From: Aquaticitalea sp. | Lineage (GTDB): Bacteria > Bacteroidota > Bacteroidia > Flavobacteriales > Flavobacteriaceae | DNA: 48,261 nucleotides | Assembly (NCBI GenBank): GCA_041748055.1 | Contig: JBGTDZ010000034.1 | Coordinates: 1 to 48,261, forward strand | Reading direction: 5' to 3' | Part shown: positions 3,145-28,379 of the stretch, one piece after another | Position numbering within the stretch: position 1 is the first letter of the stretch | Layout: each line of letters begins with the position of its first letter | Made by a program: the position numbers and the translations under genes | Notes under the pieces: generated by a model | Databases searched by the model: none | Told to the model about the DNA's origin: nothing | Seen by the model: only the letters and a program-made list of their open reading frames with translations

Positions 3145-3228
3145 ATTAAAATTTTTTGGTGTAAGACTCTAAAAATCAGTAATGGTTTAAAGTTTCAATT
3201 GCTAAAACGAAAATAAACAATGATTGTG

Positions 3229-3236
3229 TATCTTTG
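3229..3236 (+). promoter_or_regulatory. Bacteroidota -7 promoter element upstream of rimO
   Basis: TATCTTTG matches TAnnTTTG, 19 nt before the ATG. Confidence 0.6.
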
Positions 3237-3254
3237 CACACTTAATTTTTTGGT

Positions 3255-4562
3255 ATGAGAACGAAATCCCTTAAGAAAAACCGCATTAATGTCATCACCT
3301 TGGGCTGTAGCAAGAATGTGTACGACAGTGAGCTGCTGATGGGCCAGTTGAAAGCCAGTGGCAAGGATGTGGTTCATGAAGAAGAAGGCAATATTGTAGT
3401 GATCAATACCTGTGGTTTTATCAATAATGCGAAAGAAGAAAGCATTAACACCATTTTGGAGTTTATGCAGAAGAAAGAAAATGGCGAAGTGGATAAGGTT
3501 TTCGTAACCGGTTGTTTGAGTGAACGTTACAAACCAGATTTACAGAAGGAAATACCCAATGTAGACCAATATTTCGGCACAACGGAACTTCCCGCATTGT
3601 TAAAAGCCCTTGGTGCAGACTATAAACATGAATTGATTGGTGAAAGATTGACCACCACACCAAAAAATTACGCCTATCTAAAGATTGCGGAAGGTTGCGA
3701 CAGGCCTTGCAGTTTTTGTGCGATTCCTTTGATGCGTGGGAAACATAAATCGACACCCATTGAGGAGATTATCATTGAGGCAGAGAAATTGGCCACCAAT
3801 GGTGTGAAAGAATTGGTATTGATTGCACAGGATTTGACCTATTATGGGTTGGATTTGTATAAAAAACGCAACCTTGCCGAGCTGCTTGAAGCCTTGGTGA
3901 AGGTGGATGGCATTGAGTGGATCCGTTTGCATTACGCGTTCCCAACGGGTTTCCCAATGGATGTGCTGGATGTGATGAACCGTGAACCTAAAATCTGTAA
4001 TTATCTTGATATCCCGTTGCAACATATCAGTGATTCCATCTTGAAGAGTATGCGACGTGGCACCACAAAGGAAAAAACCACGAAGTTGTTGAAGGAATTC
4101 AGGAAGACGGTTCCAAATATGACCATTAGAACTACTTTAATTGTTGGCTATCCTGGGGAAACCGAGGAAGATTACCAAACATTGAAAACTTGGGTTGTAG
4201 AGATGCGTTTTGAGCGTTTGGGTTGTTTTACCTATTCGCATGAGGAGAATACACACGCTTATAATTTAGTGGACGATGTACCTGAAGAAGTCAAACAAGC
4301 ACGAGCTAACGAAATCATGGAAATCCAATCCCAAATCTCTTGGGAATTGAATCAAGAAAAGATTGGTCAGACTTTTAAGGTTGTCATTGATCGCAAAGAA
4401 GGCCATTATTTTGTGGGACGCACGGAGTTTGATTCGCCAGATGTGGATAACGAGGTGTTGATTGATGCCACAAAATGTTATTTAAAAACAGGTGAATTTA
4501 CAACCGTCACGATTACCGATGCGGCAGATTTTGACCTTTACGGGGAAGTGGTTGTTGATTAA
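3255..4562 (+). CDS. rimO: Ribosomal protein S12 methylthiotransferase RimO
   Basis: LGCSKN N-terminus, radical SAM CDRPCSFC, C-terminal TRAM domain (DSPDVD). Confidence 0.95.
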   Translation: MRTKSLKKNRINVITLGCSKNVYDSELLMGQLKASGKDVVHEEEGNIVVINTCGFINNAKEESINTILEFMQKKENGEVDKVFVTGCLSERYKPDLQKEIPNVDQYFGTTELPALLKALGADYKHELIGERLTTTPKNYAYLKIAEGCDRPCSFCAIPLMRGKHKSTPIEEIIIEAEKLATNGVKELVLIAQDLTYYGLDLYKKRNLAELLEALVKVDGIEWIRLHYAFPTGFPMDVLDVMNREPKICNYLDIPLQHISDSILKSMRRGTTKEKTTKLLKEFRKTVPNMTIRTTLIVGYPGETEEDYQTLKTWVVEMRFERLGCFTYSHEENTHAYNLVDDVPEEVKQARANEIMEIQSQISWELNQEKIGQTFKVVIDRKEGHYFVGRTEFDSPDVDNEVLIDATKCYLKTGEFTTVTITDAADFDLYGEVVVD

Positions 4563-12880: not shown

Positions 12881-13428
12881 TGGTTTTTAAAAGTCTTTTA
12901 AGTGTTGTATTTGGTCTGTTCATATTGACATCAAACAATGATGAACCCATTTCGTGGAAAGACAACATCAAACTAACCTGGAACCATTTTAAAGGTACTC
13001 CAAAGACCAATATGTCGGCAGTGGCGGTCACCGCTTCTGGTATCACCTTTGAGTTTTCAGTTAAAGAATCCAATGACCGCGTCATTGGTTTCAATACCAC
13101 GGTATATGCACATTTTTATCCAGGCAAATCATGGTATATCAAAGAGCAAGGCAATGCACATATCTTGGCTCATGAACAATTACATTTTGACATTACAGAA
13201 CTTTATGCACGCAAATTCAGGAAGCAAGTTGCCCAACTGGAAGTTTCCAATGCTATCAAATCGCAACTTCGAATGCTTCATGAGAAAGTCAATAAAGAAT
13301 TGGCTGAGGCTCAAAACACGTACGATCGGGAAACCGATAATTCGGTAAATGTTGAATTACAGAACAAATGGAACAGTTATGTGAAACTGGAATTAAAGAA
13401 ACTGGACGCCTACAAATCAAAGGATTAG
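12871..13428 (+). CDS. DUF922-like putative Zn-dependent protease
   Basis: L.HEQLHFDI.E..AR (HExxH) and LTW..F.G motifs. Confidence 0.75.
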   Translation: MAVMVFKSLLSVVFGLFILTSNNDEPISWKDNIKLTWNHFKGTPKTNMSAVAVTASGITFEFSVKESNDRVIGFNTTVYAHFYPGKSWYIKEQGNAHILAHEQLHFDITELYARKFRKQVAQLEVSNAIKSQLRMLHEKVNKELAEAQNTYDRETDNSVNVELQNKWNSYVKLELKKLDAYKSKD

Positions 13429-13659
13429 ATGCTGCAACCAGATCAGGACTTTCTCGTAAAACTTGCGCACTACAAAATGCCTTTTGGCAAATACAAAGAC
13501 CACTACCTTATCGATATCCCCGAATTTTATTATGTTTGGTACCAAACCAAAGGATTTCCTAAAGGACAGCTCGGAGTGATGATGCAACAGATGTATGAAA
13601 TCAAACTCAATGGATTAGAGGAATTGATTTATGGAATTCGGAAACGATATTCAAAATAA
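13429..13659 (+). CDS. DUF3820 family protein
   Basis: MPFGKYK...IDIPE.Y..W...GFP.G.LG...YEIKLNGLE. Confidence 0.85.
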   Translation: MLQPDQDFLVKLAHYKMPFGKYKDHYLIDIPEFYYVWYQTKGFPKGQLGVMMQQMYEIKLNGLEELIYGIRKRYSK

Positions 13660-13681
13660 AGAAGGCATTTTTCTATTCATG

Positions 13682-13694
13682 GTTATCGGTTAAG
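13682..13694. repeat. Terminal half site of the array (only the cassette-side arm remains)
   Basis: GTTATCGGTTAAG is the inverted partner of CTTACTCATAAC at 16186-16197; lies 7 nt from the stop of the last cassette gene. Confidence 0.55.
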
Positions 13695-13700
13695 TTTCTA

Positions 13701-14921
13701 TCATTCTTGACCTGTTTTGGGCAAATCAAAGTATTCATTTATTGTTTCGTCAAGTCTGGTGCTCAATAGGTTGAAGTTGTCTTGATTAGGTTTCAGATTG
13801 ATAAACCTGTCAATAACTCGGCTTCGTTTGTACAGGATAAATGTATTTTCTACTGATGGATCTATTTTGTTTAAATCAATATCTGATTCAATGTCTGAAA
13901 AAGAAGGAACAAAAGTCAATGCAACTTTTTCTAATTTTAACTCCGTTCCAAGCTGAGCCAATTCTTTTTCTCTGATACTTTTATTATAAGCCTTCTCATT
14001 GCCATAAACAAAATACACCTTTAAATATTTTTCTCTTTTCTTACTTTCATTTTCTAGGAAAGTCAACCAAAGTTCAATCTCCTCCCAATTCGGGTTGTTA
14101 CCAACAAAGTAAAGTATTCCGTGATACCAACCATATTTGCAAACTGGGCAAGTTCTTGTCCCTTTGTCTTGTCCCCAAGCGTGATAAGGAATAAAGGAAA
14201 TAATATCTTCTCCGATATTTCTACCAGAGTTTATCTCATTTGATGGTTTCTTCGGATAATCAGGAATGTTTAAACCGAGAATGATATTTCTTTCGCCAAT
14301 CTGCAACTCGCCTTTTTGAACTAATCGTAATACGCCACTTCCACAACGATTTTCCATTTTCTTTCTTCTTGCAGAAGTCAAAATTTTATCGTCATCAAAA
14401 ACAAAATCATCTATGTAATATTCCTTTAGGTCATTTGGCTCTTTCACGGTAATATGGATGTGAGCAGGTTCATCATTAGTTGGATATGTCCCTGGTCTTA
14501 TTGTATAGATATAATACTTTCCTTCCTTGTCTGTTTTTACCCAACCACGAATGTATCCGTGTGTTTGACCAAGTTCATTTGGTGGCATACTTCTAATTTC
14601 TTCCGTCTTGTGTAAATATTTTCCTTCTGTATTGGTTTGGTAGTAATACAATAGAACATCAGGTGCCGGGGATTTCCCATCAATTTGGTAAACGATTCCG
14701 GTTATTAAAATTTTTTGTCCTTTTTGATTCCAACCTGCACTTGTGTCAATGGAACTGATTGTTTTAGGAATACCGTAGTATGTAAATTCACTGTTTTCAA
14801 ACGCACCGCCAACTGATTGTTGATTGTTTGTAGTTCCAGTGCTTTGTTTGGTTTGCCCATTGCAACTTGTCATAACGATGCAAAGCGCAAAAAACAGTCC
14901 GATTTGTGAAAATTGATTCAT
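13701..14921 (-). CDS. Intradiol ring-cleavage dioxygenase-like lipoprotein with extra C-terminal domain
   Basis: YQT...GKY, RGWVKTD..G.Y, TIRPG.YP and PAHIH motifs; lipobox MTSC; CPVC in the C-terminal part. Confidence 0.8.
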   Translation of the reverse strand: MNQFSQIGLFFALCIVMTSCNGQTKQSTGTTNNQQSVGGAFENSEFTYYGIPKTISSIDTSAGWNQKGQKILITGIVYQIDGKSPAPDVLLYYYQTNTEGKYLHKTEEIRSMPPNELGQTHGYIRGWVKTDKEGKYYIYTIRPGTYPTNDEPAHIHITVKEPNDLKEYYIDDFVFDDDKILTSARRKKMENRCGSGVLRLVQKGELQIGERNIILGLNIPDYPKKPSNEINSGRNIGEDIISFIPYHAWGQDKGTRTCPVCKYGWYHGILYFVGNNPNWEEIELWLTFLENESKKREKYLKVYFVYGNEKAYNKSIREKELAQLGTELKLEKVALTFVPSFSDIESDIDLNKIDPSVENTFILYKRSRVIDRFINLKPNQDNFNLLSTRLDETINEYFDLPKTGQE

Positions 14922-14936
14922 AACTATTAGTTCAAT

Positions 14937-15179
14937 TTAGATTGAATTTTGATGTTTATTTCCATTAATAAAAACTTGACCGCCAAGCTGTTTTATGTCA
15001 TAGCTAAGCTAACCTTATTTTGTTTTTTTACACGTTTCAACATGTTATTGAGTAGTCAAAACAGTGTCCTTTGTTTTACCGTCTATTTGAAACATCAATA
15101 TTTCCCAGCGTTGGGAACTATAAACAATGGCACTATCGCCAATAATCCCAAGCAAAGACAAACGAACCCACAGGATTAT
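14937..15179 (-). pseudogene. Decayed gene remnant, possibly SnoaL/NTF2-like (DUF4440-type) beta-rich protein
   Basis: One frame reads ...GDSAIVYSSQRWEILMFQIDGKTKDTVLTTQ*HVETCKKTK*G*LSYDIKQLGGQVFINGNKHQNSI* with three internal stops; 5' part not recognisable. Confidence 0.55.
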
Positions 15180-15323
15180 TTTAAAATGTTATAGTTGATT
15201 CTTAGTCTTCAATTTGGAACTTGACAATGTTGAATGAATATGGCCAAATTCTTCTCTTTTATATTTCAGGTAAATTTCGTTCTGTACCAAGCTGATTTGC
15301 AAATAAAATGTAGTGAGGCGATG

Positions 15324-16166
15324 TTATTCTGTTGTATCCCGATGAGTTTTTCCAAATTTCTGTTTGAAAGATGAAGCATAATTTCTGCTAAGCCTTATTT
15401 CTGTCCCATCACACATTGTCAAATCATAATCGCCATTAAGCCTTGATTTGTAGGATTGAACTTTTTTGATGTTCACGATAACGGATTTATGAACCCGAAC
15501 AAATAATTCTTTGTCTAACCTTTCTATAACCGATTTTAGGGTTTCATTGTGCAAGTATCTTTTCTGTTTGTGGTGAATATTAATATAAGGCGAATTGGCC
15601 GAGAAGAAAAAAATGTCATTAGTGCTGATAATCATTCGCTTGTTATTGTCCGTAACCAAAAGTGATGTAATGGGAATATTCTGTGTTGAATAATCTGTCT
15701 CAATTGAAATATCAAGTTTCCGCTTTAATTTGTTTTTGAAAAAAGTGTAAACAATGAACGGAACAGAATAGGCAGTTAATAGTATAAAACTGTATGAAGT
15801 CAATTCATACTGAAAAGTTTGCCAAAAGGAAAAAGTGTGAGGATAGAATAATTTAGAAATCAGCCAAACAATGGCAGGGTAGGCAAACAGATGTGCGATA
15901 ATAGGAATTAACACAAACAAAATATCCGTTATTCTTTTATTTCGGACGCTGGCAAAATTAAATTGTAGGAACAATAACGGTAGGAAAATCCACCAAAACG
16001 AACTGAATAAAAATGATTCAGAAAAATAAAAAGACCAACCATGAAACTTTGATTCCACCATATCCAAAACCACTGTCAGCATAACACAAGTTGACAAAGT
16101 GATTGGCAAGAACACGAGTAATCTGTATTGCATCGCATTCCTGTTTAATTTAATTGCTGGATTCAT
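15324..16166 (-). CDS. LytTR DNA-binding protein with N-terminal transmembrane region
   Basis: Hydrophobic N-terminal helices; C-terminal FVRVHKSVIVN and NGDY.L...DG..I.LSR.Y. Confidence 0.88.
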   Translation of the reverse strand: MNPAIKLNRNAMQYRLLVFLPITLSTCVMLTVVLDMVESKFHGWSFYFSESFLFSSFWWIFLPLLFLQFNFASVRNKRITDILFVLIPIIAHLFAYPAIVWLISKLFYPHTFSFWQTFQYELTSYSFILLTAYSVPFIVYTFFKNKLKRKLDISIETDYSTQNIPITSLLVTDNNKRMIISTNDIFFFSANSPYINIHHKQKRYLHNETLKSVIERLDKELFVRVHKSVIVNIKKVQSYKSRLNGDYDLTMCDGTEIRLSRNYASSFKQKFGKTHRDTTE

Positions 16167-16185
16167 ATTTGGTGGTGTTTTTTAG

Positions 16186-16326
16186 CTTACTCATAACGTT
16201 TAGACGCCATTAGTCTACGGCGACCTTTTAGACAGAGTACTCTGTGCTACTGTAAATGTAGCTAAAAAAAGGAACGTTCACTTCAGAAAAAACTAGGAAA
16301 AGGAAATAGCAGAGGATAGTGGCTGT
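16186..16326. repeat. Cassette site 1 (attC-like, degenerate)
   Basis: CTTACTCATAAC ... GATAGTGGC; 123 nt core to core (16195-16317); weak internal symmetry; GTT core changed to GAT. Confidence 0.6.
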
Positions 16327-16337
16327 ATCCATGAAAG

Positions 16338-16820
16338 CTACATCTTCTCTTTATATTTTTCAAGAATGAATTCGGCCGACTTTACAGATTGTATCATAAT
16401 AATAGGAAAATCGGTCGCCATTTTCTGTCCCGCAGAAGTCTTGTAGAATTTTATGAGTTGCTTTATTTCATTATAAGTGAAATGCTTTCTGTAAATCCAT
16501 ATTATTGAATTATCTATCCATTTCTTTCCATTTCCTACCGTCAAGAACTTATTAATATTTTGATAGTCAATTTCAGAAATTTCATTTTTGCTACGTGCTT
16601 CAGCAATTTTATAATCCATTGCTTCATTAATGCTAAAACCCCCTTTAAGATCTCGTAATACTTTAATTTTATCTGACATTTTATCATTCGGAACAGCCGA
16701 AGTATCGATCTGAAAGGTTTTCATGGTTTCAGAAATCCTATTGAAAATACTTGATTTATCTACTTGAGAAATCCCAAATTGTTGAAATGAGCAAAATAAT
16801 AAAAACAGACATTTCTTCAT
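16338..16820 (-). CDS. Secreted protein with DUF2059-like C-terminus
   Basis: Y.KHFT..EIK.LI.FY.TSAGQK motif; start moved to MKKCLF (16820) because the longer ORF runs through site 2. Confidence 0.75.
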   Translation of the reverse strand: MKKCLFLLFCSFQQFGISQVDKSSIFNRISETMKTFQIDTSAVPNDKMSDKIKVLRDLKGGFSINEAMDYKIAEARSKNEISEIDYQNINKFLTVGNGKKWIDNSIIWIYRKHFTYNEIKQLIKFYKTSAGQKMATDFPIIMIQSVKSAEFILEKYKEKM

Positions 16821-16842
16821 TTTATTTATATTTTTAGGTGAT

Positions 16843-16985
16843 ATTGCCACTAACTGTTTAGGACTTTGCGATGGTGGGAAAATCGAAACATAAAGGTTCA
16901 ATTTATTGCTAAAATTCAATATAAGCACAAACCTCAAAGTTTGCACGTCACCCCGCCTGACGCGAAACCCGTGTTGTTGGCAGTT
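16843..16985. repeat. Cassette site 2 (attC-like)
   Basis: ATTGCCACTAAC..GGACTTTGCGATGGTGGG ... CCCGCCTGACGCGAAACCC..GTTGTTGGCAGTT; 124 nt core to core. Confidence 0.85.
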
Positions 16986-16988
16986 TTT

Positions 16989-17903
16989 CTATTTAGTCGA
17001 TGTGGTGTAAAAGTCATAAGTTACTTTTGCGATGTCAGCTATGATTTTTTCGTTTGTGTCAAAACTTTCTTTTGATTCACTTACAAAAACACTGATGATA
17101 AAATACTTTCCGTTTGGCAAAAACACAATTCCAATATTGTTTACAGCGGCAGTAATTCCCGTTTCTTTGTTTGTGCCTGACCAACCTGTTTTGTGGGCAA
17201 CAATTGTTCCTTCAGCCAACTGTCCTTTTATTCGATTTTTCCCTGTCGTTGTTTCTCTATTTGTTTTCCAAAAAAAGTCGTGGCTGCTTTTTGAAAGTAA
17301 ATTGTTTTTATTCTCATAGAACATTTTCAACGTCTCACTTGCAGTTTTAGGTGTTGTCCAGTTTTCAAACATATTTTCCCATTTCGCCTGCATATCTTGT
17401 TCGTTATAAGTAATTTGTATGTCTTGAATATTATTCTTTTTAAAGTATTCTTCAACTGTTTTGGGTGTCCCAATAAGCCTTATCAATACATCACAAGCAG
17501 TATTATCGCTATGTGAAACTGAATATTGAATTAGCTTTTTAATAGTAAAACCCCCACCGTTGGGATATTCATCCCTTAGTGGACTCCAAAAATCTTCGGG
17601 TAAAAGTTCATCTTTACTTATTTCTATTTTCTGGTCTAATGAAAATTTTCCTTTGTCAACCTCCGACAAGACGGCCAATGCTATATGAAATTTAAAAACG
17701 CTTTGCATAGGAAATCGTCTGTCTCCGTGGAAAGAAAGGGTGTCTTTACCGTCATTTCCACTAATTGAAACTCCAACTACTGCGTTTTTGTCGGACACAA
17801 TTTGCTCTATTTTGCTTCGTAGCAAATCAGTCTTTTTTTTTTGAGCCTGGCAACTTGTTAGGAATAATAAAAGTAAAGCTGTCAATTGAACTAGTCTTGT
17901 CAT
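16989..17903 (-). CDS. bla: Class A beta-lactamase, subclass A2
   Basis: FPMQSVFK (SxxK), SDN, NE omega-loop glutamate, HKTG; WSPLRD.YP.G and ENWTTP typical of A2 enzymes; signal/lipoprotein peptide. Confidence 0.93.
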   Translation of the reverse strand: MTRLVQLTALLLLFLTSCQAQKKKTDLLRSKIEQIVSDKNAVVGVSISGNDGKDTLSFHGDRRFPMQSVFKFHIALAVLSEVDKGKFSLDQKIEISKDELLPEDFWSPLRDEYPNGGGFTIKKLIQYSVSHSDNTACDVLIRLIGTPKTVEEYFKKNNIQDIQITYNEQDMQAKWENMFENWTTPKTASETLKMFYENKNNLLSKSSHDFFWKTNRETTTGKNRIKGQLAEGTIVAHKTGWSGTNKETGITAAVNNIGIVFLPNGKYFIISVFVSESKESFDTNEKIIADIAKVTYDFYTTSTK

Positions 17904-17940
17904 ATTTATTTTTGATTTAATTATAGGAGTTGTCTTTTAA

Positions 17941-18087
17941 AATTGCCACCAAGGGTTTGCGGCTTGGCTTGGCGAGGCAGGTTTTTTAGAATTAAACATT
18001 ATTAGTTGCACAAAGCTTAAATTTTACATTTCACTGACATAGAACCACGAAACCCCCACTTTTGCAAAACCGCTGTTAGTGGCAGTT
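17941..18087. repeat. Cassette site 3 (attC-like)
   Basis: AATTGCCACCAAG GGTTTGCGG ... GCAAAACCGCT GTTAGTGGCAGTT; 127 nt core to core; AAC core changed to AAG. Confidence 0.85.
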
Positions 18088-18449
18088 TATTTTTCTTTCA
18101 AATTGGGAATTTCGTCCAAACTATAATAAATTTTTAAACCTAACTCTTTTGCAATTCTCACATCGTTGTCAGCTCCTTTTGAATCTCCTTCGATGCGAAG
18201 CACTGCATCACACTTTTCAAGAAGTCGATGCGCGACAGGATATTGTATCTCATCCCAAATATTGTCACCAATCCCTTTTGATCCTGCTAAATGCATTAGA
18301 GGTAAGGCAACCCATTCGCCAATTATAGGAATGTGCCCTTTACGAAATAAGGGCAAGGCAACTGATTCAAGTTTGTCTAAATTCTTCTTTATCAATATTG
18401 GGTCGTCATTAGTGCCTCCGCGATATGCACCTGCGATAAGTATCATCAT
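18087..18449 (-). CDS. DUF4406-like / nucleoside deoxyribosyltransferase-like small protein
   Basis: ILIAG.YR, GH.P.IGEW and CDAVLRI.G.S.GAD.DV motifs; tightly coupled to nudK. Confidence 0.7.
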   Translation of the reverse strand: MMILIAGAYRGGTNDDPILIKKNLDKLESVALPLFRKGHIPIIGEWVALPLMHLAGSKGIGDNIWDEIQYPVAHRLLEKCDAVLRIEGDSKGADNDVRIAKELGLKIYYSLDEIPNLKEK

Positions 18450-18451
18450 AA

Positions 18452-19030
18452 TTATAAAATATTATTGAGTTTAATATATTGAAGAAGCATTATGGTTTTT
18501 CCATCTTTAATTTCTCCATTTTTAATCATTTTCACTGCTTCATCAATTTTCAATTCTAACACTTCTATGTTTTCTTCTTCGTGTTCAACACCGCCACCAT
18601 CAGTTACTTTCATTTCTTTGACATATTCAGCAATAAAAAAATATAAAATTTCAGTTACTGACCCTGGCGACATATAGGCTTCAAATATTTTCTGTACTTC
18701 TGTTATTTTAAACCCTGTTTCTTCTTCGGTTTCTCGTCTAATACAATCTACTGCATTGTCATTGTCTAACAGGCCAGCACAGGCTTCAATTAACATTCCT
18801 GTTTCATTTCCGTTTACAAATGTTGGAAGGCGAAACTGTCTTGTAAGAATGACAGTTTTTTTATTTTTATTATAAAGTAAAATTGTCGCACCATTTCCTC
18901 TGTCATAGGCTTCTCTGCTTTGGATAAGTTTTGTTCCGTCTTTTTTGGTGTACTCATAAGTTATTTTATTAAGTATATACCAATTGTCAGAAAGGACTTT
19001 TATGTCCAATATTTTTATGTTGTCTATCAT
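18452..19030 (-). CDS. nudK: GDP-mannose pyrophosphatase NudK (Nudix hydrolase)
   Basis: [22 protein letters not shown], Nudix box AGLLD...[22 protein letters not shown]. Confidence 0.9.
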
Positions 19031-19073
19031 TGTGTATGATGTCTTGAAAAATTACTCTTGGTAGTTTTTAATT

Positions 19074-19740
19074 TTAACGGCTGATAGCAAAAACTTCATA
19101 TTCAACAAGCATTTTTTCTGAGAGTTCAGATAGTTTATGATTGGGTTTTGAAAAAACAGCTTTGTCAAGAAATTTCAATACATTCTTTTCCGTTGGTTTT
19201 AATATTTGCAAAAGATTAAAATATAGATTTTTAAGCGTCAAGGAAAAAAGTTGTAAGCAACCGGGATTTAATAAAAATGCAGCTTTGACTTTTTCAGGTT
19301 TTACAATTCCAAGTTTCATACATATCAACCCACCAAAGGAAGCACCCACAATAAATGTTTTTTCAATTTTCAATTTTCCTAAAACTTCGTCCGCCCAATA
19401 GCCATATGCCAAAGATTTAATGTTTGGTGTTTGACCATTACTTAAATTTGGTAGTCCGTTTGTTTTAACCATAAAAATTCGCATTCTATGTTTGAAGTTG
19501 TCAAGTCCTTTATCAAAGTCCCATATTAAAGCTGTTGTTCTTGCTCCTGGAAAAATCACTATCGTGTCTAAGTGTTCTCCTTCTGTAAAGTCCCCAAACG
19601 TGTGTTTTACCGAGTGAAGTTTCAATTTCATAACGTTCGTATTGTCGACCGTTAATATTTTCCAATTTTTTTACCCAATTTTCAAAATAATTTAGGTCTT
19701 TTTTTTCGTCTTTGAAGTATGATTTATTTTTTATTTCCAT
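19074..19740 (-). pseudogene. Alpha/beta hydrolase, frameshifted and C-terminally truncated
   Basis: ORF 19513-19740 (..IETSLGKTHVWGL) continues in ORF 19074-19631 (..TIVIFPG..GASFGG nucleophile elbow); frameshift near 19588; ends before the catalytic Asp/His region. Confidence 0.8.
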
Positions 19741-19760
19741 GTTTATGTGTGTCGTCTGTT

Positions 19761-19962
19761 AAACCTCTCTCTAACATTTTGCATTGGACAAGGGCAGGGC
19801 TTCATTAGTGGTCACGAGTAATGCATTATATAATTATGATGTTAAAATTAACGAAAAGTTCATTAGAAAAAGATCAGCCCTTGACCACAGCTGCCATTTT
19901 GATGATGCACAATTTTCGATGTCCAGCCCTGACTTTAGGCAATGCATTTTTAGACGCATAGT
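19761..19962. repeat. Cassette site 4 (attC-like, long variant)
   Basis: CTAAC ATTTTGCATTGGACAAGGGCAGGGCT ... AGCCCTGACTTTAGGCAATGCA TTTTTAG; 179 nt core to core; GTT changed to TTT. Confidence 0.8.
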
Positions 19963-19967
19963 AATTC

Positions 19968-20456
19968 TTATATCGAAGTTTTTGTGATATTATTAGAATG
20001 CTTTACTACTTTATATAACATTATAACATTCGTTATTGTAAATAAAATCATCGGAATCTTTCTATAAATCATATCAGTTGATATAAGCCGTTCAATTAAT
20101 TCCCGAGAAAATCTTTGGTCAAGTTCGATTTGAATTGGTATTTGAATTGTTATTGTTGAAATCAAGGCTATTATTTTAAAGAGTAGTGCAAGTCCAACCA
20201 ACCACTTGCTTATAATCATTGGTCGAAACCAAAACAATAAAATCAGTGGGATGAAGGTTAAGAAAGTGGGAACAACAAATAGTGGAATAATGAGCGAACT
20301 GTCAACTTGATGAAATTTAGGAAATTCGTTTGCACCTACCCAAAGCCATGTGGGGTAGGCCACCAACGAGTTTACAATGCCTCCACCAAAAGCATAGAAA
20401 GCTAACAAAATATAGACAGAGAATACAATACTTGAAATTTTGTTATTATTAGCCAT
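19968..20456 (-). CDS. Four-helix membrane protein (DUF1772-like)
   Basis: Hydrophobic helices; VAYP.W..VG..EF..FH and T...QIP motifs. Confidence 0.6.
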   Translation of the reverse strand: MANNNKISSIVFSVYILLAFYAFGGGIVNSLVAYPTWLWVGANEFPKFHQVDSSLIIPLFVVPTFLTFIPLILLFWFRPMIISKWLVGLALLFKIIALISTITIQIPIQIELDQRFSRELIERLISTDMIYRKIPMILFTITNVIMLYKVVKHSNNITKTSI

Positions 20457-20511
20457 AGTATAATTTTAATATATCCTTTGTACGATTGTTTGTCTTACAT
20501 ACTGTCTTGTG

Positions 20512-20652
20512 ACTAACCGCTAAAGGATAACGGCTTGTCGATGTGGCGGATTTTTAGCACAAAAGTTAAATAGAAAAACTACCGTTGAATTTCGCACAAA
20601 TGTTTCATATAAACACTACAGCCACTATATTGCCAAACACCTGTTATGCGGT
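20512..20652. repeat. Cassette site 5 (attC-like)
   Basis: ACTAACCGCTAAA..GGCTTGTCGATGTGGC ... GCCACTATATTGCCAAACACCT GTTATGCGG; 124 nt; contains the stop codon of the methyltransferase. Confidence 0.8.
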
Positions 20653-21288
20653 CTTTTTTTTATTTGCTGTCAAAATTGTGTGTGTGTCAAATTCGTTTTC
20701 ATCTTTTTCATATTGCACTTTAAATACTTTAATTTTCTCAAAGTTGTTTTTTTGAAGTTGTTTAGTCAGGTCGTCTAAGTTGTAAAAATAAAAATATGTT
20801 CTATCGCCACTGCTACCAACTAGAAAGTCAGATTGACTTGGGTTTCCTTCAACAAAACTTATATAAATCAGTCCATTTTCATTTAGTAAATTGTAACAGT
20901 CAGCAATCAGTTTTTGGCTGTCTGTTTGAGACAGATAAGGTAAACAAAAACCACATATAATTCCGTCATATTTTGATTTAATTTCGTCAATGTATCTGCT
21001 GTCCATAATGCCGAATCTTGCAGTAGGATTGTTACTTTCGGCAAGTTCTATCATATTTGGCGCAATGTCAATTCCAAAAATATCAAAGTGTGGCCGTTTA
21101 GTTAAAAGATACTTTGTAATGTTCCCTGGTCCGCAACCAATTTCTAATATTTTGGCTTTGTCTTTAGTAATTGAGTTACAAAAAAAATCATAAGTGCCAT
21201 TATACAAGTCCAAGTCCATAAACTTCTCCTGATATAGCAAAGCAACTTTATTCCAAGTTTTAAATGTTTCTTTATATCTGTCGTCCAT
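20644..21288 (-). CDS. Class I SAM-dependent methyltransferase
   Basis: ILEIGCGPG and GIDIAP.MI motifs; start MDDRY (21288) preferred because the longer ORF starts inside site 6. Confidence 0.88.
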   Translation of the reverse strand: MDDRYKETFKTWNKVALLYQEKFMDLDLYNGTYDFFCNSITKDKAKILEIGCGPGNITKYLLTKRPHFDIFGIDIAPNMIELAESNNPTARFGIMDSRYIDEIKSKYDGIICGFCLPYLSQTDSQKLIADCYNLLNENGLIYISFVEGNPSQSDFLVGSSGDRTYFYFYNLDDLTKQLQKNNFEKIKVFKVQYEKDENEFDTHTILTANKKKTA

Positions 21289-21307
21289 AGTTGAGTTGTC
21301 TTTAAAA

Positions 21308-21446
21308 TGCCGCATAACGTTTTACCTGTTGCCGAAGTTGGCGATTTTCACCACAAATGTTGATGTGGACAACCAAGGTTTGATTGACCACAAATGTGTC
21401 TGCGGAGCAATGAACCTCCACTTTTGCCAAACCGCTGTTAGCTGCT
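21308..21446. repeat. Cassette site 6 (attC-like)
   Basis: CCGCATAAC..TTGCCGAAGTTGGCG ... CTCCACTTTTGCCAAACCGCT GTTAGCTGCT; 124 nt; both cores intact. Confidence 0.88.
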
Positions 21447-21532
21447 TGCATACTTTTTCCACGAAGTCGGTCAGCCCGAAGTCGGCAGAAAAGTTAGTTA
21501 GTAGCACTTCGTTTTTCAATGTCGTGTCAAGT

Positions 21533-21922
21533 TTATGGTGTTGGAATATTCTCTACTAACATTTCGTTTCCAGATTTGTCGTAGTAAGTGCAAGTCATTT
21601 TTGAAGTGTCAACCGTCCATTTCTCTACTCCTGATTTTGCACAGTCGCTACAAAATGTCGGATAGTTTGTTTGTCCGCGTTGGTGAGCTTTCAAATCAAT
21701 TTTGAACTGTTCAGCGTTTGATACTTCGGGAATAAGTAAAGTGTTATACTTTGCAGGTGTTGAAGACTTAAAATCGATTCCATGGTAATCCGTGTGTCCG
21801 TCTGAAACATAAGTTTCGTATCCGGTTACACCTAAATGTTTTATGTCTTTGATGTATGCAGGAAAGTCCGCACCTGATTTCATTTTGCTGTGAGCTGTTT
21901 TGATTTGTTCTAATGTAAACAT
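21533..21922 (-). CDS. DUF1398 family protein
   Basis: H..KSGADFP.Y...LGV..Y...V.DG, HQ.GQT.Y.TF and GV..W.VD...MTCTYYD motifs. Confidence 0.85.
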   Translation of the reverse strand: MFTLEQIKTAHSKMKSGADFPAYIKDIKHLGVTGYETYVSDGHTDYHGIDFKSSTPAKYNTLLIPEVSNAEQFKIDLKAHQRGQTNYPTFCSDCAKSGVEKWTVDTSKMTCTYYDKSGNEMLVENIPTP

Positions 21923-21943
21923 ATTTGCTTTTTTAAATTAATA

Positions 21944-22579
21944 TTACATTTTCTTTCTGTCTTTCGGTAACAAATTTCTTTCGTAAAAAATGTATGTTGT
22001 GTTTTCGTCCGCCATCCAGTCAATAAGTTTTAATATACCAACAATATTCAGAATAAGTCCGAGAGCAATGCCGATAAAGTAGTCGGTGCTTGTCGCAAGA
22101 TTGTTAGTATGAATAATTGAAACAAAATAAAAAGTACAAGGCACCAAAAGCAACCAACTTCTAGCCAAACATGCGTTGAAAAGCGTCTTGTCTTTTATAT
22201 TGAAAACAGTTGTATGAGCTGTTGCATTGCCAAAACAAACCATAATTGTAGCTATACCCAGCCAAAATGCTTTTTCTGCAAGGATAGCTGCAAGAAAATA
22301 TGATGTCCAGCCAATAACCACATTTACATAAAATGCTGTGTTGGTTTTTAAGGGGTATCGGTCAGGCAACTTACTGTTAAACATTACAGAGTTAATCAAG
22401 ACAGGGAAAGTCCCTGCAATTCGATACTCTTCTAATTGATGTAAAAAAAGGGAAACTAAACTACACCACATCAATGTCTGATAATTTGTCAAATTACTGT
22501 AGTTGATGTATACATAAAAACAAACAAGGGCAGAAAAAAAAGCACCTAAGTCATACCAGTTTTTGCGCAGTAAATTCAT
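21944..22579 (-). CDS. HXXEE domain membrane protein
   Basis: LHQLEEY motif in a multi-pass membrane protein. Confidence 0.85.
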   Translation of the reverse strand: MNLLRKNWYDLGAFFSALVCFYVYINYSNLTNYQTLMWCSLVSLFLHQLEEYRIAGTFPVLINSVMFNSKLPDRYPLKTNTAFYVNVVIGWTSYFLAAILAEKAFWLGIATIMVCFGNATAHTTVFNIKDKTLFNACLARSWLLLVPCTFYFVSIIHTNNLATSTDYFIGIALGLILNIVGILKLIDWMADENTTYIFYERNLLPKDRKKM

Positions 22580-22620
22580 TTTTTTTATTCCATATATTTT
22601 GTAGAAGTGTCGTCATAAAA

Positions 22621-22759
22621 ACAGCAGCTAATGTTTGATGTATAATTAGTCGCATGGTTAAGCAACTAAATTAGTGAAAATGGAATGAACCAGAGGAAAT
22701 TCTGAAGGAATTTCCAAGTAAGCTAGACCGAGCAATTAATTATAAACATTGTTAGGCCT
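22621..22759. repeat. Cassette site 7 (attC-like, second sequence family)
   Basis: AGCAGCTAAT..TGTATAATTAGTCGCATGGTT ... GACCGAGCAATTAATTATAAACATT GTTAGGCCT; inner hairpin GGAAATTC-TGAAG-GAATTTCC; 124 nt. Confidence 0.85.
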
Positions 22760-22870
22760 CGATGTTTAATTTTTATTATTTAATTTCGTAAAAACAGAGT
22801 ACCCAGTATTTAATGAATTTTAATAATTACTGAAATTAAAAAGTTAATTTGTTTCTGAAGTCGAAGTCAT

Positions 22871-23476
22871 ATGAGAATTTTAATATTTGCTTTAATCTTG
22901 ATTACTTCTTGCATATCCAATAAAAACAGAACTCTTAATACTTCTGAAGCAAAACAATATAATGAGAAAAATAATATGAGCAGCACAACCGTTTACAATT
23001 TTATCGAACAAGGTAAGGGCAAATGGCGTGTTCAGGACGACGTCGTTATGGGAGGGCGTTCAGATAGCCAGCTCAAAATGACGGAGGACAGCAGGGCAGA
23101 ATTTTCCGGTCGCATATCTCTTGAAAATAATGGTGGTTTTTGCTCGATTCATCAAACTTCGGAAGAGAACCCCTATGTGATTGCAGAAAATTACAAGGCA
23201 TTTGTACTCGTTTTGAAAGGAGATGGAAAGGATTATAACTTTCGGGTTAGAATGCCTAAAGGGCGTCACTCTTACGCGTTTACTTTTTCAACTGAAGAGG
23301 GAACCGATTGGGAAAGAATCATCATTCCATTTGATTTGATGGAAGCTACCTATCATGGTGAACCAGTGGACGTGCCCAATTACCAAGGTGAAAACGTAGT
23401 CGAATTGCAATTGCTGATTGGCAATAAAAAAGAAGAAACCTTTAAAATTCTTTTAGAATCTATTGAGGTTAGGTAG
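22871..23476 (+). CDS. CIA30 family lipoprotein (cassette gene in inverted orientation)
   Basis: W....D.VMGG.S, F.G..SLENNGGF.S, GDGK.Y and LIGNKK.E.F motifs; lipobox ITSC. Confidence 0.9.
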   Translation: MRILIFALILITSCISNKNRTLNTSEAKQYNEKNNMSSTTVYNFIEQGKGKWRVQDDVVMGGRSDSQLKMTEDSRAEFSGRISLENNGGFCSIHQTSEENPYVIAENYKAFVLVLKGDGKDYNFRVRMPKGRHSYAFTFSTEEGTDWERIIIPFDLMEATYHGEPVDVPNYQGENVVELQLLIGNKKEETFKILLESIEVR

Positions 23477-23515
23477 CCAAACCTTTCATTATTGCTCTTC
23501 ACTCAATTAATTTCA

Positions 23516-23707
23516 AATAAGGCATAACGTTTTGCGGTAAAATGAAGTTGCCGATTTAATCACACATTAATTATTTTTTAAAGGTGTTCATGATTTTCAA
23601 TTCGAAGCGCAAAACTATATGCCACCACTAAACTTGCCACGAAGCACAAAACTTAATTTAACCACTGAATCGCCAATTTCTTATAGGTTCTATTGTGCGT
23701 TCGGCTT
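23516..23707. repeat. Cassette site 8 (attC-like, long variant)
   Basis: AGGCATAAC..TAAAATGAAGTTGCCGATT ... AATCGCCAATTTCTTATA..ATTGTGCGTTCGGCTT; 169 nt; GTT changed to ATT. Confidence 0.8.
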
Positions 23708-23737
23708 ATTTTGTAACTTCTAAATAAAGTCAGTAAA

Positions 23738-25183
23738 TTAGTCCCTATAGTTTAACGCTGGTTTTCTGTCGCCAAGTAAAGCCTTATATTGATAATCGCC
23801 TTTTGATTGTATAAATTCTTCTTTTGCTTTTTTTATTAATTCAGGGCTTGTAAATAAATCAATTGCTGTGAACGCCATAGTTTTTGAAGCTACCATCATT
23901 CCTTTTATACCAATGTCTGTCCCACCGCAGGCAACAGCCTGCCAGCTATGTGCACTCGTACCAGGCACCCATGTTGCAGTTTCTACACCTACTGTTGGCA
24001 CTGTATAACTTACATCACCTACATCTGTTGAGCCTTGATTTTTTTCAATGTGCAGAGGTGCTATTACACTTGCATTATCTATTGAAGGAAATTTGCCCAG
24101 AAAGCTTGTTTGAATTTTTTTAGCAAAAACATTGTCTGCTGCAGTGTACATCACACCACCAGCTTTCTCTAAATTGGTTTGCATATTTACGGCAAGTGTT
24201 TTATTGATAAGCAGGTCGTGTGTACCACCAATTATTTCGTAATCCATTTTTGTTTCCGTACCAAGGGCAGCGCCTTCCGCAGCTTTTGTAATCCGTTCAA
24301 AAATGGATACTGCCATTGCTCTATCGGGGTGTCTTACATAGTAATAAACTTCGGCAAATTCAGGCACCACATTTGGAGCTTTACCGCCATTGGTAATTAC
24401 ATAATGAATTCGGGTTTCCTGTGGAAAATGTTCTCTCATCATGTTTACCATATTATTCATAGCCTCTACCGCATCTAATGCAGAACGACCTTTCTCAGGT
24501 GACGCAGAAGCATGTGATGCAATACCATAAAACCTAAACTTGGCAGATTTATTAGCCAATGCACTAGTATATGTTACTGTATTATGTTCATCCGGATGCC
24601 AATGTAGTACCACATCAACACTATTGAACAACCCTTCCCGAACCATATATACCTTTCCGCTTCCACCTTCTTCTGCCGGACAACCAAATAATTTAATTGT
24701 GCCTTTTATCTTTCCTGTTTCCAATAATTTTTTGATTGCAATACCTGTAGCTACAGAACCAGTACCAAACAAATGATGCCCACATGCATGTCCACTGTTT
24801 TTATTTAAGATTGGTGTTTTTGTAGATGAATTATCTTGTGATATTCCTGGTAAGGCATCATATTCTGCCAAAACACCAATTACAGGTGAACCGCTGCCAT
24901 AAGTTGCCACAAAGGCAGTAGGCATTCCAGCTACACCAGCTTCCACAGTAAATCCATTTTCCTTTAATGTTGTCTGCAACAATGTAGAACTTTTATTTTC
25001 TTTATATCCTAATTCTGCATAATCCCAAATGCTCAAAGCAATTTTTTTATAAGCATCATAACCCGATTGTAGGGTGGTAGCCGTTTCATTTTTTAAGGCA
25101 GCAATTGATTTTTTGTTATTGCTTTGAGCTAAACAATTGAATCCGATTGTCAGCGATAAAATGTAAGCAAAAATTAATTTCAT
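23738..25183 (-). CDS. M20 amidohydrolase, AbgB-like (p-aminobenzoyl-glutamate hydrolase subunit B family)
   Basis: AEYDALPG, GHACGH, PAEEGG, WHP, GRSALDA, GSTDVGDVS and HSWQ motifs; signal peptide. Confidence 0.88.
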   Translation of the reverse strand: MKLIFAYILSLTIGFNCLAQSNNKKSIAALKNETATTLQSGYDAYKKIALSIWDYAELGYKENKSSTLLQTTLKENGFTVEAGVAGMPTAFVATYGSGSPVIGVLAEYDALPGISQDNSSTKTPILNKNSGHACGHHLFGTGSVATGIAIKKLLETGKIKGTIKLFGCPAEEGGSGKVYMVREGLFNSVDVVLHWHPDEHNTVTYTSALANKSAKFRFYGIASHASASPEKGRSALDAVEAMNNMVNMMREHFPQETRIHYVITNGGKAPNVVPEFAEVYYYVRHPDRAMAVSIFERITKAAEGAALGTETKMDYEIIGGTHDLLINKTLAVNMQTNLEKAGGVMYTAADNVFAKKIQTSFLGKFPSIDNASVIAPLHIEKNQGSTDVGDVSYTVPTVGVETATWVPGTSAHSWQAVACGGTDIGIKGMMVASKTMAFTAIDLFTSPELIKKAKEEFIQSKGDYQYKALLGDRKPALNYRD

Positions 25184-25233
25184 ATAGTTTTTTTAAAATT
25201 GATGATTTTTTTCTCAATAATATGGTGTCTCTT

Positions 25234-25376
25234 AAGCTGACGCACAACGGTTGAGGCTATAAATGGTGGCGGTTTGCGTGGTTGTCCGCTGTCAACCAAC
25301 ACCAATGATGGTGAGGGTTACGAGCTTTCAGTTATATGCTTCACCCGCCATTTTTTATAGCCTTTGTTGGCGGTTC
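25234..25376. repeat. Cassette site 9 (attC-like, third sequence family)
   Basis: CACAAC GGTTG AGGCTATAAATGGTGGCGG ... CCGCCATTTTTTATAGCCT TT GTTGGCGGT; 123 nt; strongest stem, both cores intact. Confidence 0.9.
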
Positions 25377-25384
25377 GTTGTTTT

Positions 25385-26068
25385 TCACGCAATTTTATTT
25401 GTTGCAAATCCATTTTCAAGTTCTACTAGGTCAAGTTTAATAAAGTCCTGAAAATGTTGAGAACTTAAATGCGCTTTAAAAGCATGCTCGTCAGTAAAGC
25501 ATTCCCAAATTAATATTTTGGTTGGGTCTTCAATAGTTTGGTGTATGTCAAAAATCACGTTGCCTTTTTCAAGAATTGTAAGCTCTCTCAATTTTTTAAG
25601 CTCACTTTTTACGAGTGATATTTTTTCAAACTCTTTTATTCTTAAAATTCCTGTCGAATGGTATAAAGTTTCATTTTTTGGTGTCGGCTCTATCAAGTCC
25701 CAAAAATTTCCAAATATGTCTTCGAAAACTGCAACTGTTCCGTAAGTTTCAATACTTGGCTCTCTTACAATTTTAATCTGTTTGTCAAGCAAATTTTGAT
25801 AATCTCGTTCAAAGTTGTCAGTTTGTAGGAAAAGAAAAACTCTCCCGCCTGTTTGATTTCCAATTCTGCTTATTTGTTCTTGGTTTACGCCTTTGGCTAA
25901 TAATAAAGAACATTCATTTGCTCCTTTTGGTGTTACAAGAACCCACCTTTTGGTTTCTGATAAAATTGTGTCTTCTGTCAGCGAGAATTGAAGTTTTTGG
26001 GTATAAAATTCTATCGCTTTGTCATAGTCGTCAACAACAATTGCAATATGAGTTAAATTCTGTTTCAT
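25385..26068 (-). CDS. VOC/glyoxalase domain fused to an antibiotic biosynthesis monooxygenase (ABM)-like domain
   Basis: VDDYD.AI.FY..L.F, GNQTGGRVFLFL.TD and YG.VAVFED..GN.WDL, then E.GN..F.I.Q..DP....WE.F....AF..H..S.HF. Confidence 0.85.
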   Translation of the reverse strand: MKQNLTHIAIVVDDYDKAIEFYTQKLQFSLTEDTILSETKRWVLVTPKGANECSLLLAKGVNQEQISRIGNQTGGRVFLFLQTDNFERDYQNLLDKQIKIVREPSIETYGTVAVFEDIFGNFWDLIEPTPKNETLYHSTGILRIKEFEKISLVKSELKKLRELTILEKGNVIFDIHQTIEDPTKILIWECFTDEHAFKAHLSSQHFQDFIKLDLVELENGFATNKIA

Positions 26069-26111
26069 TCTATCTGTCCAAATTGTTTTTTGCTAGTCTT
26101 TCGGATGCTTT

Positions 26112-26150
26112 CACAATTACCGACAACTCTTTAATATACGCAAACTAAAG
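26112..26150 (-). other. attI-like primary recombination site
   Basis: Minus strand TTTGCGTATATTAAAGA G/TTGTCGGT; GTTGTCGGT matches GTTGGCGGT at the other end of the first cassette (8/9); no palindromic partner on the integrase side. Confidence 0.7.
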
Positions 26151-26240
26151 AGATGAAATATATTTAAAAGTTTGATTTTTAATTTTTTAGTGTTGTTTTT
26201 GCTGTGTTTTACCACATATGTTAAAAATAAAAAAAATGAA

Positions 26241-26423
26241 CTATAAATTATCCAACGAACTAATTATTTTTCTTAATTTTTGATACTGAGCCGTATAGCG
26301 CAGGATTGTTTTAATATCCTTGTGCCCTAGAAAATCATGGATGAAACGGACGTCGGTGCCTTGTTCTAATAAATGGGTGGCATAACTTTGCCGCAACAAA
26401 AAACAAGTGTATGGAGCAGCCAT
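26241..26423 (-). pseudogene. C-terminal remnant of a tyrosine recombinase (XerD / integron-integrase-like)
   Basis: LRQSYATHLLEQGTD.R.I..FLGH.DIKT..RYT...ISSLDNL: box II with catalytic R, H and Y plus a decayed SPLD.L tail; upstream part missing. Confidence 0.85.
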
Positions 26424-26707
26424 AGATAAGCCGTATATGTTATTCTTTTTAATCCTTCAAAGCCAATACTTAAACAAGATGAGCGCAGCAGACAGAGTCA
26501 TAATTTGAACGTATAATTAAATCATCCTTATTACGTTTTACGCCACATGAGTCAATCTATCCACACCAACAAATTGCTAAGGATTGAAGTTTCAGTTCAT
26601 CACTAGATAATTTAAGCCATATGTATGTTAACATAACTTATGAAAGCCCGAAGTTCTTTACCCATAAATTACTAAAAACAATTCCCCAAAACTCTATATA
26701 AATTTTG

Positions 26708-26715
26708 TAAATTTG
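26708..26715 (+). promoter_or_regulatory. -7 promoter element upstream of pyrG
   Basis: TAAATTTG matches TAnnTTTG, about 20 nt before the ATG. Confidence 0.6.
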
Positions 26716-26726
26716 CCTGCGTTTAA

Positions 26727-28379
<1,653 letters not shown>

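Follow-up and report, generated by a model that had tools for sequence, protein, structure and literature searches.

A decayed, integron-like array of gene cassettes in Aquaticitalea sp. and related arrays in the Flavobacteriaceae

A contig of Aquaticitalea sp. (Flavobacteriaceae; GenBank assembly GCA_041748055.1, contig JBGTDZ010000034.1; its 48,261 nucleotides are hereafter referred to as the window) contains a row of ten gene cassettes beside the remnant of a recombinase gene, and in eight of these cassettes the two ends are complementary to each other. Such a locus raises the question of what kind of system assembled it, which piece of DNA was moved, and whether the movement proceeded through circles. 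The row is a decayed, integron-like array and a worn example of a little-described system that is common in this bacterial family. In the reading preferred here, to which a probability of roughly 0.8 is assigned, a tyrosine recombinase lacking the insertion typical of integron integrases (IntI) likely excises cassettes as circles and re-inserts them at its own docking site.

Matched cassette ends in the window and in the family

The initial annotation of the array had claimed that both ends of each cassette pair with each other, and all 16 end strings quoted in its support were found at the positions given. When the six variable bases next to the triplet were scored, its eight chosen segments yielded 43 matches out of 48, a value reached by one of 40,320 permutations (mean 23.3), and all ten segments yielded 49 out of 60, which was reached by 18 of 3,628,800 permutations (mean 28.4). 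The end-matching in the window is real. The list of segments proved sound for those eight but had missed two decayed cassettes (18075-19775 and 19949-20524, each 3/6), and the ends of the segments were right, whereas the hairpin downstream of the gene had been left out although it belongs to the cassette. As had also been claimed, the outer arms of a single site usually match worse (2, 4, 5, 3, 2, 2, 2, 4 and 3 of 6 in the nine real sites, the 5/6 at 17951-18077 being the exception); the earlier inference that two cassettes contribute to every visible site is thereby supported. The spacing from AAC to GTT is 117-121 nt in seven of the nine sites and 163 and 173 nt in the remaining two, a length check that is independent of end-matching and hence gives separate support for the ends. 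Wear is evident from a damaged triplet in 6 of the 20 arms. The parts of the array are the following:

26241-26456, minus strand: C-terminal remnant of a tyrosine recombinase, about 70 codons, upstream of the cassettes and co-oriented with them
26125-26150, minus strand: putative attI-like docking site ending in GTT, a worn copy of the TATA-rich motif found 3' of the recombinase stop in relatives
25248-26126, minus strand: cassette 1, VOC/glyoxalase-ABM gene (25385-26068) and hairpin site 25246-25368; ends 5/6
23528-25247, minus strand: cassette 2, M20 amidohydrolase gene (23738-25183) and long hairpin site 23526-23694; ends 6/6
22632-23527, minus strand: cassette 3, CIA30-family gene on the opposite strand (22871-23476, plus) and hairpin site 22630-22753; ends 5/6
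21318-22631, minus strand: cassette 4, HXXEE and DUF1398 genes and hairpin site 21316-21439; ends 6/6
20524-21317, minus strand: cassette 5, SAM methyltransferase gene (20644-21315) and hairpin site 20522-20645; ends 6/6
19775-20523, minus strand: cassette 6, open reading frame (ORF) of 162 aa without a family match and worn long site 19773-19951; ends 3/6
17953-19774, minus strand: cassette 7, alpha/beta-hydrolase fragment, NUDIX gene, 120-aa ORF and hairpin site 17951-18077; ends 3/6; possibly a deletion fusion of two cassettes
16854-17952, minus strand: cassette 8, subclass A2 class A beta-lactamase gene, RATA-like, and hairpin site 16852-16975; ends 5/6
16197-16853, minus strand: cassette 9, DUF2059 gene and degenerate 117-nt site 16195-16317; ends 6/6
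13682-16196, minus strand: cassette 10 (distal), LytTR regulator and intradiol dioxygenase-like genes; stops at AAC, hairpin lost; ends 4/6

The system extends well beyond the window. According to IntegronFinder surveys, almost no complete integrons occur in Bacteroidetes (PMC9024848), and true integrons are at most rare in the phylum (PMC9024848, PMC2426708, PMC8618304; for these and all other papers cited, statements refer to the accessible parts of the text). Yet 90 of 200 other genomes of the family contain a match, at E up to 1e-60, to an intact recombinase encoded on another contig of the source genome (G000:C80). Forty loci, in which long contigs are favoured, were fetched from 97 listed matches to this protein and scanned with a detector that considers only the inner hairpin, uses two length windows chosen after a looser first pass, and misses some sites. 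A total of 286 sites were detected in 34 of the 40 loci, 247 of them 111-122 nt and 39 (all those longer than 170 nt) 173-188 nt in length; across unrelated sequences (L192-L231), the two length classes lie at about 118 and 181 nt, approximately six helical turns apart. Behind the recombinase stop codon in these loci, a motif that is kept across genera ends at GTT. In the source genome itself, seven other contigs (C21, C72, C80, C90, C119, C179 and C247) bear cleaner-looking sites among 19 detector matches.

Among 258 intervals under 3 kb in the related loci, the ends match 6/6 in 196, 5/6 in 26, and 4/6 or fewer in 36. Within-locus shuffles (n = 2,000) predicted 27.6 perfect matches with a maximum of 45, against the 196 observed, although related loci are not independent and these counts overstate the significance. 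Only 5 of the 286 hybrid sites match 6/6, and the 196 perfect intervals use 94 different hexamers. The pairing of the ends extends to about 14 bp: in 222 good pairs, positions 10, 12, 13 and 14 match as well (77-92%), whereas position 11 matches in only two. At this position, the start arm has A in 221 pairs, opposite C at the end in 194, and the resulting A/C mismatch corresponds to a T-G wobble on the bottom strand.

End-matching in itself is not new. In controls consisting of three class 1 cassettes and two arrays from phage-collection records, the ends of the class 1 cassettes match over 10, 9 and 10 of 12 bases, and 10 of the 15 phage-collection intervals match over 7-12 bases, with position 11 matching too in 6 of those 10. 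A search of plasmids for varied IntI sequences yielded IntI1 alone; the two arrays came from phage-collection records. End-matching is a standard, textbook property of integron cassettes. What is new here includes the mapped mobile unit, the 14-bp arm with its fixed wobble, the occurrence of the same end rule in a cluster resembling rAID-1 (discussed below), and intron evidence for the bottom strand.

Mobile unit and the probable folded-strand substrate

The initial annotation had held that end-matching fixes the crossover at G/TT. A cut within GTT is borne out by identical cassettes in differing contexts, whereas end-matching cannot fix the crossover, because the arms match alike whether a hairpin belongs to the preceding or the following gene. 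The contexts come from two sets of loci. The first comprises 161 sequences (160 beta-lactamase loci and the window), in 53 of which both arms were recognisable; after removal of 7 out of register and 5 with short flanks, 41 were compared. In the 820 pairs, the downstream side alone is common to 42 and the upstream side alone to one. Three loci (L127, L128 and L129) are identical in the core and in the 118-nt hairpin downstream of it, yet each has its own upstream context and its own next cassette, and they diverge directly after GTT, in agreement with the earlier prediction that homology would stop there with differing neighbours. In the second set, the 222 cassettes of the integrase loci include 16 repeated pairs, of which 11 share the hairpin only, four share both sides, one shares neither, and none shares the upstream side only. 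Moreover, in locus L211 the same 450-bp cassette stands at the docking site, where A precedes GTT, and at three places deeper in the same array, where C precedes GTT. Judged by the downstream-only sharing and the L211 copies, the moving unit is GTT-gene-AAC together with the downstream hairpin of about 118 nt, with its boundary within GTT, and the hairpin is shown to travel with the gene upstream of it. That a hairpin moves along with its gene bears out the earlier argument that the hairpins are not repeats inserted on their own. The exact bond may be placed at G|TT by analogy with integrons, and the first triplet base, which shows no covariation between the ends of a cassette and differs systematically in a Bacteroides cluster, fits this placement.

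It had further been proposed that rejoining a cassette into a circle restores a longer palindrome. In agreement with this, the circle junction built in silico was more stable than the array site for 192 of 196 cassettes of relatives, and the bottom strand of the junction was more stable than the top strand in 194 of 196. In five loci (L013 at 4928, L046 at 2837, L126 at 2235, L198 and L227), a sequence lying antisense between the two A of AAC resembles, by its motif, the 3' end of a group II intron. In L126, the upstream site contains a second antisense intron, confirmed by Rfam and Pfam. The position between the two A is that of the TTGT/T insertion point of IIC-attC introns (PMC7923331, PMC3001079), and a bottom-strand folding bias has likewise been reported for attC sites (PMC5027507). 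As for the claim that the ends record circular intermediates, the complementary ends stand, whereas the circles themselves are deduced only, none having been seen; cassettes are nevertheless likely to leave as DNA circles and to re-insert.

Recombinase, proposed mechanism and alternative explanations

Over 61 aa, the remnant in the window shares 44% identity with the intact recombinase of G000:C80, and no further recombinase parts were found within 26100-26760. Since the window gene is a fragment, the array has probably either become frozen or is served in trans by the C80 gene. The presence of the IntI insertion was assessed in the C80 protein, a 395-aa paralog whose gene has a motif of this kind and matched cassettes behind it. 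This protein contains PF00589 and Phage_int_SAM_4 domains, scores 190.9 bits against TIGR02249 (cut-off 265), and has 10 residues where IntI4 (2A3V) has 55; no match above the TIGR02249 cut-off was found in any of 201 genomes of the family. All 14 array-associated enzymes have 64-65 residues in the segment from KG.K to H..RH, compared with 70-72 for the two Xer proteins of the source genome and 105-107 for three IntIs. A tree of 19 proteins places the array enzymes together with an enzyme from Bacteroides ovatus and with the TnpF encoded on a tet(X3) plasmid (89/93, not starred). IntI lies next to this group, and the root of the tree drew long-branch warnings.

From the pattern of sites and enzymes, the following course of events may be proposed. 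A tyrosine recombinase without the integron-integrase insertion would cut out the unit of GTT-gene-AAC plus the following hairpin as a circle, and circles would be re-inserted at the docking site just 3' of the recombinase gene. By analogy with integrons, the substrate would be the folded bottom strand, the cut would fall at G|TT (on the bottom strand, AA|C), and the donor copy could stay because the product would be resolved by replication. The folding bias, the intron position and the retained duplicates bear on this indirectly. The sequence pattern further suggests that the long arm of the circle could serve as a nearly double-stranded binding site for the enzyme, like the CTX phage stem for XerCD, and that a long matched arm would therefore be selected for integration.

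Several observations weigh against this mechanism. The bottom-strand advantage is partly due to G-T wobble alone. In free folding of both strands, just 2 of the 9 window sites have a z-score below -3, and 7 are weak; 2 of the 10 window segments match only 3/6, and the distal cassette has no hairpin. The 36 poorly matching intervals of relatives also count here, some of them probably reflecting missed sites. Close homologs have in some cases exchanged hairpins (L126/L132 at 99.5%; L131, L136 and L137), so the link between gene and hairpin is not permanent. In the beta-lactamase lineage, a compensated change at arm position 4 occurred on about three branches, and there are three uncompensated cases. 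A near-identical pair differing at the first GTT base was sought among 58 loci and none was informative, which leaves G|TT, GT|T, GTT| and |GTT all possible. Finally, a circle or cassette-skipping joint was sought in the contigs of five runs (X1-X5) and none was found; contigs drop rare variants, and this result is no evidence of absence.

The topology could be the same if the matched arms had arisen incidentally, at the birth of a cassette or through gene conversion in the folded strand with one end copied onto the other, and were not required for integration. This idea, which is compatible with excision and re-insertion as proposed above, appears unlikely. Copying would easily give 94 different hexamers matched almost perfectly, and the compensated change in the beta-lactamase lineage may reflect no more than about three events; however, plain copying would erase the mismatch that persists at position 11 between matched flanks, and matches decay beside the dead recombinase (4/10 perfect) but not beside full-length or nearly intact genes (196/258). 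A mirror-image topology, with the cut at AA|C directly after the gene and each cassette carrying its hairpin in front, predicts the same end-matching and would suit the distal window cassette, which stops at AAC, as well as the extra unpaired bases on the arm opposite to that of classical attC. It is hardly credible, and is already refuted by identical cassettes sharing the downstream hairpin only (42 downstream-only versus 1 upstream-only pairs, and 11 versus 0 in the integrase loci). Besides, no hairpin precedes the first cassette behind the docking site, and the homolog of the distal cassette in run X5 keeps the hairpin start after AAC.

Inverted arms with matched 6-bp cores would also suit the sites of a shufflon-like invertase, the six matched bases being the overlap region, and the CIA30 gene is indeed reversed. 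Inversion would shift the G at position 11 to the start arm, where A is found in 221 of 222 cassettes; no inverted copy occurs among the 16 repeated pairs, the longest ORF is in sense orientation in 206 of 222, and the arms of the CIA30 cassette are normal in polarity, all of which makes this explanation highly improbable. Scarcely more plausible is the notion that the hairpins are inserted REP/MITE repeats, or the cores small transposons with terminal inverted repeats: hairpin families do recur on other contigs of the genome and hairpins are occasionally swapped, whereas gene and hairpin co-move, arrays begin exactly at the motif behind the recombinase, and sites of unrelated sequence share the length ranges of 111-122 and 173-188 nt; identical cores with and without a cleanly inserted hairpin and a target duplication were not seen. 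An ordinary integron with IntI and attC that had lost its integrase would explain the AAC...GTT frame, the topology and end-matching like that of the controls, and co-oriented integrases are known from Treponema (PMC3607928). Membership of this class is refuted by the shorter KG.K to H..RH segment, by the TIGR02249 scores of the protein and the family, and by a spacer register of about 3 versus 5-6 rather than 3 versus 3, and this origin is very unlikely. Recombination of circles by an enzyme without the insertion is the reading retained below.

Related systems and resistance cargo

The resemblance to integrons is nevertheless extensive. An AAC...GTT site follows each gene, each cassette has its own downstream hairpin with a boundary in GTT, and an attI-type docking site whose motif ends in GTT, and at which insertion presumably occurs, lies beside the recombinase; the ends of each cassette are complementary, the bottom strand folds better, and group II introns occupy an equivalent position. 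In contrast to integrons, the recombinase of this family lacks the IntI insertion of about 40 residues. The sites come in two narrow ranges of length, near 118 and near 180 nt, and their spacer is asymmetric; the ends of a cassette are paired for about 14 bp, with position 11 almost always mismatched (matches in 2/222 versus 6/10 controls), and the docking motif is conserved across genera. The boxes and A/C cleavage of attC have been described (PMC3053210, PMC5027507), as has the role of the I2 helix in integron integrases (PMC4792948). The geometry of attC comprises a 5-6 nt spacer per arm, extrahelical bases near L'' and a length of 57-141 bp, and the flavobacterial sites depart from it in spacer and length: their spacer is offset by 2-4 nt on the other arm, a range imposed by the final detector and not by the seed sites or the looser first pass, and 39 of the 286 sites are longer than 170 nt. 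With the defining insertion and attC geometry absent, the system works in an integron-like manner but is not a classical integron.

The nearest described relatives are the rAID-1 clusters of Bacteroidales, in which conserved intergenic motifs were called "reminiscent of integrons" (10.1101/471110; also 10.1101/2025.05.03.651265). In both, a XerD-like recombinase precedes low-GC genes of the same orientation, and the motifs between these genes are conserved, whereas rAID cargo consists of orphan immunity genes and that of the window of metabolic, regulatory and resistance genes. The rAID-1 definition includes a 5' recombinase more than 44% identical to BF9343_RS08045, for which the recombinase of a B. 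ovatus plasmid was compared as a stand-in, and at least two co-oriented genes downstream with a GC content of 41% or less; the array genes have 30-39%, which is uninformative in a 37% GC genome. The definition also includes orphan immunity genes in Bacteroidales, and no immunity family was found among the array proteins scanned. The stand-in recombinase is 39.9% identical to the C80 recombinase, lacks the IntI insertion and is nested among the flavobacterial enzymes. In the rAID-like immunity cluster of this plasmid (NZ_CP081918; L233, 5707-12786), the ends match 6/6 in 9 of 10 cassettes, the end arms having been picked from 1-4 candidates with all winners at a hairpin length of 37-41 nt; hairpins of this length and ATT start arms distinguish the cluster from the flavobacterial arrays. 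The accessible text of the rAID papers gives no site anatomy, boundaries or circles (10.1101/471110; 10.1101/2025.05.03.651265), and no description of the flavobacterial system or its boundaries was found in a literature search with subscription journals mostly outside its reach; the anatomy of the sites may in part be shown already in the supplements on rAID (motifs in figure S4, tables S6-S7), which limits this negative. CTX phage integration by XerCD likewise uses a folded single-stranded substrate, recombinases without the I2 domain and a stem that mimics double-stranded DNA (PMC4792948). CTX hijacks the host XerCD at dif, whereas the long arrays described here are the work of a dedicated recombinase acting at a site of its own.

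The beta-lactamase of cassette 8 (16989-17903) is RATA-like at 630.9 bits (cut-off 660), and its hairpin family also follows close beta-lactamase homologs in other genomes. Homologs up to about 90% identical are found in such cassettes across Bacteroidota and Ignavibacteria, the groups covered by the 80 best genome loci; at the DNA level, plasmids were matched at about 65% only, which is uninformative on boundaries. On an Acinetobacter plasmid (NZ_CP104735; L232, 2967-5117), a truncated recombinase of the family and a GTT docking motif are followed by tet(X3), and then by AAC and a hairpin start resembling the window sites, with hexamers matching only 3/6.

It is judged slightly more probable than an even chance that the flavobacterial arrays, the gut rAID clusters and the tet(X3)-adjacent recombinase form one phylum-wide active capture system, a sister lineage of integrons without the I2 domain in which a 14-bp self-matched arm with a fixed wobble replaces the extrahelical bases. 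If so, the system would serve as a living model of how integrons evolved before IntI, and resistance genes would have in it a route that is as yet unmapped. Should the enzyme prove active, the supposed need for the IntI insertion on folded single-stranded sites becomes directly testable; a mechanism would then be available for the rAID clusters, and the vehicle of cassette-borne beta-lactamases and of tet(X) would be mapped. As a detector of such cassettes, the end-matching rule is both strong and cheap.

In the window, the array (34.7% GC) lies between a PF12843 gene and pyrG, with flanks of 38.6% and 38.8% GC. Eleven same-genus loci were fetched, and six reached both flanks, three being empty and three containing unrelated genes. 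Rfam gave no match within 13400-26800, a window hairpin gave none in the phage collection, and a sigma-70 scan for a Pc-like promoter stayed at chance level, this model being ill-suited to Bacteroidota promoters. A repeat search of the window recovered the site families only as fragments, and a DNA search with two cassettes across 401 genomes returned 15 distant matches that were not used for boundaries. The degenerate DUF2059 site (16195-16317) contains 9 nt identical to the end arm of the 162-aa cassette (19949-19957), perhaps a relic of a deleted cassette. At the distal end (13660-13700), the X1 and X2 contigs break at 13671, and one X2 contig continues past this point with other sequence that includes a GTT arm-like motif (30 letters seen), a hint of a second distal allele.

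Elsewhere in the source genome, a 525-aa ORF and a transposase-like ORF occur among the cassettes of G000:C179 (-2 to 1575 and 3127-4182). The first cassette 3' of the intact recombinase (L012, 1324-4114; G000:C80) is 3.1 kb long and encodes restriction-modification-like genes, namely an HTH protein and a fused N6-methylase/specificity protein, and it has the same hexamer as the second cassette.

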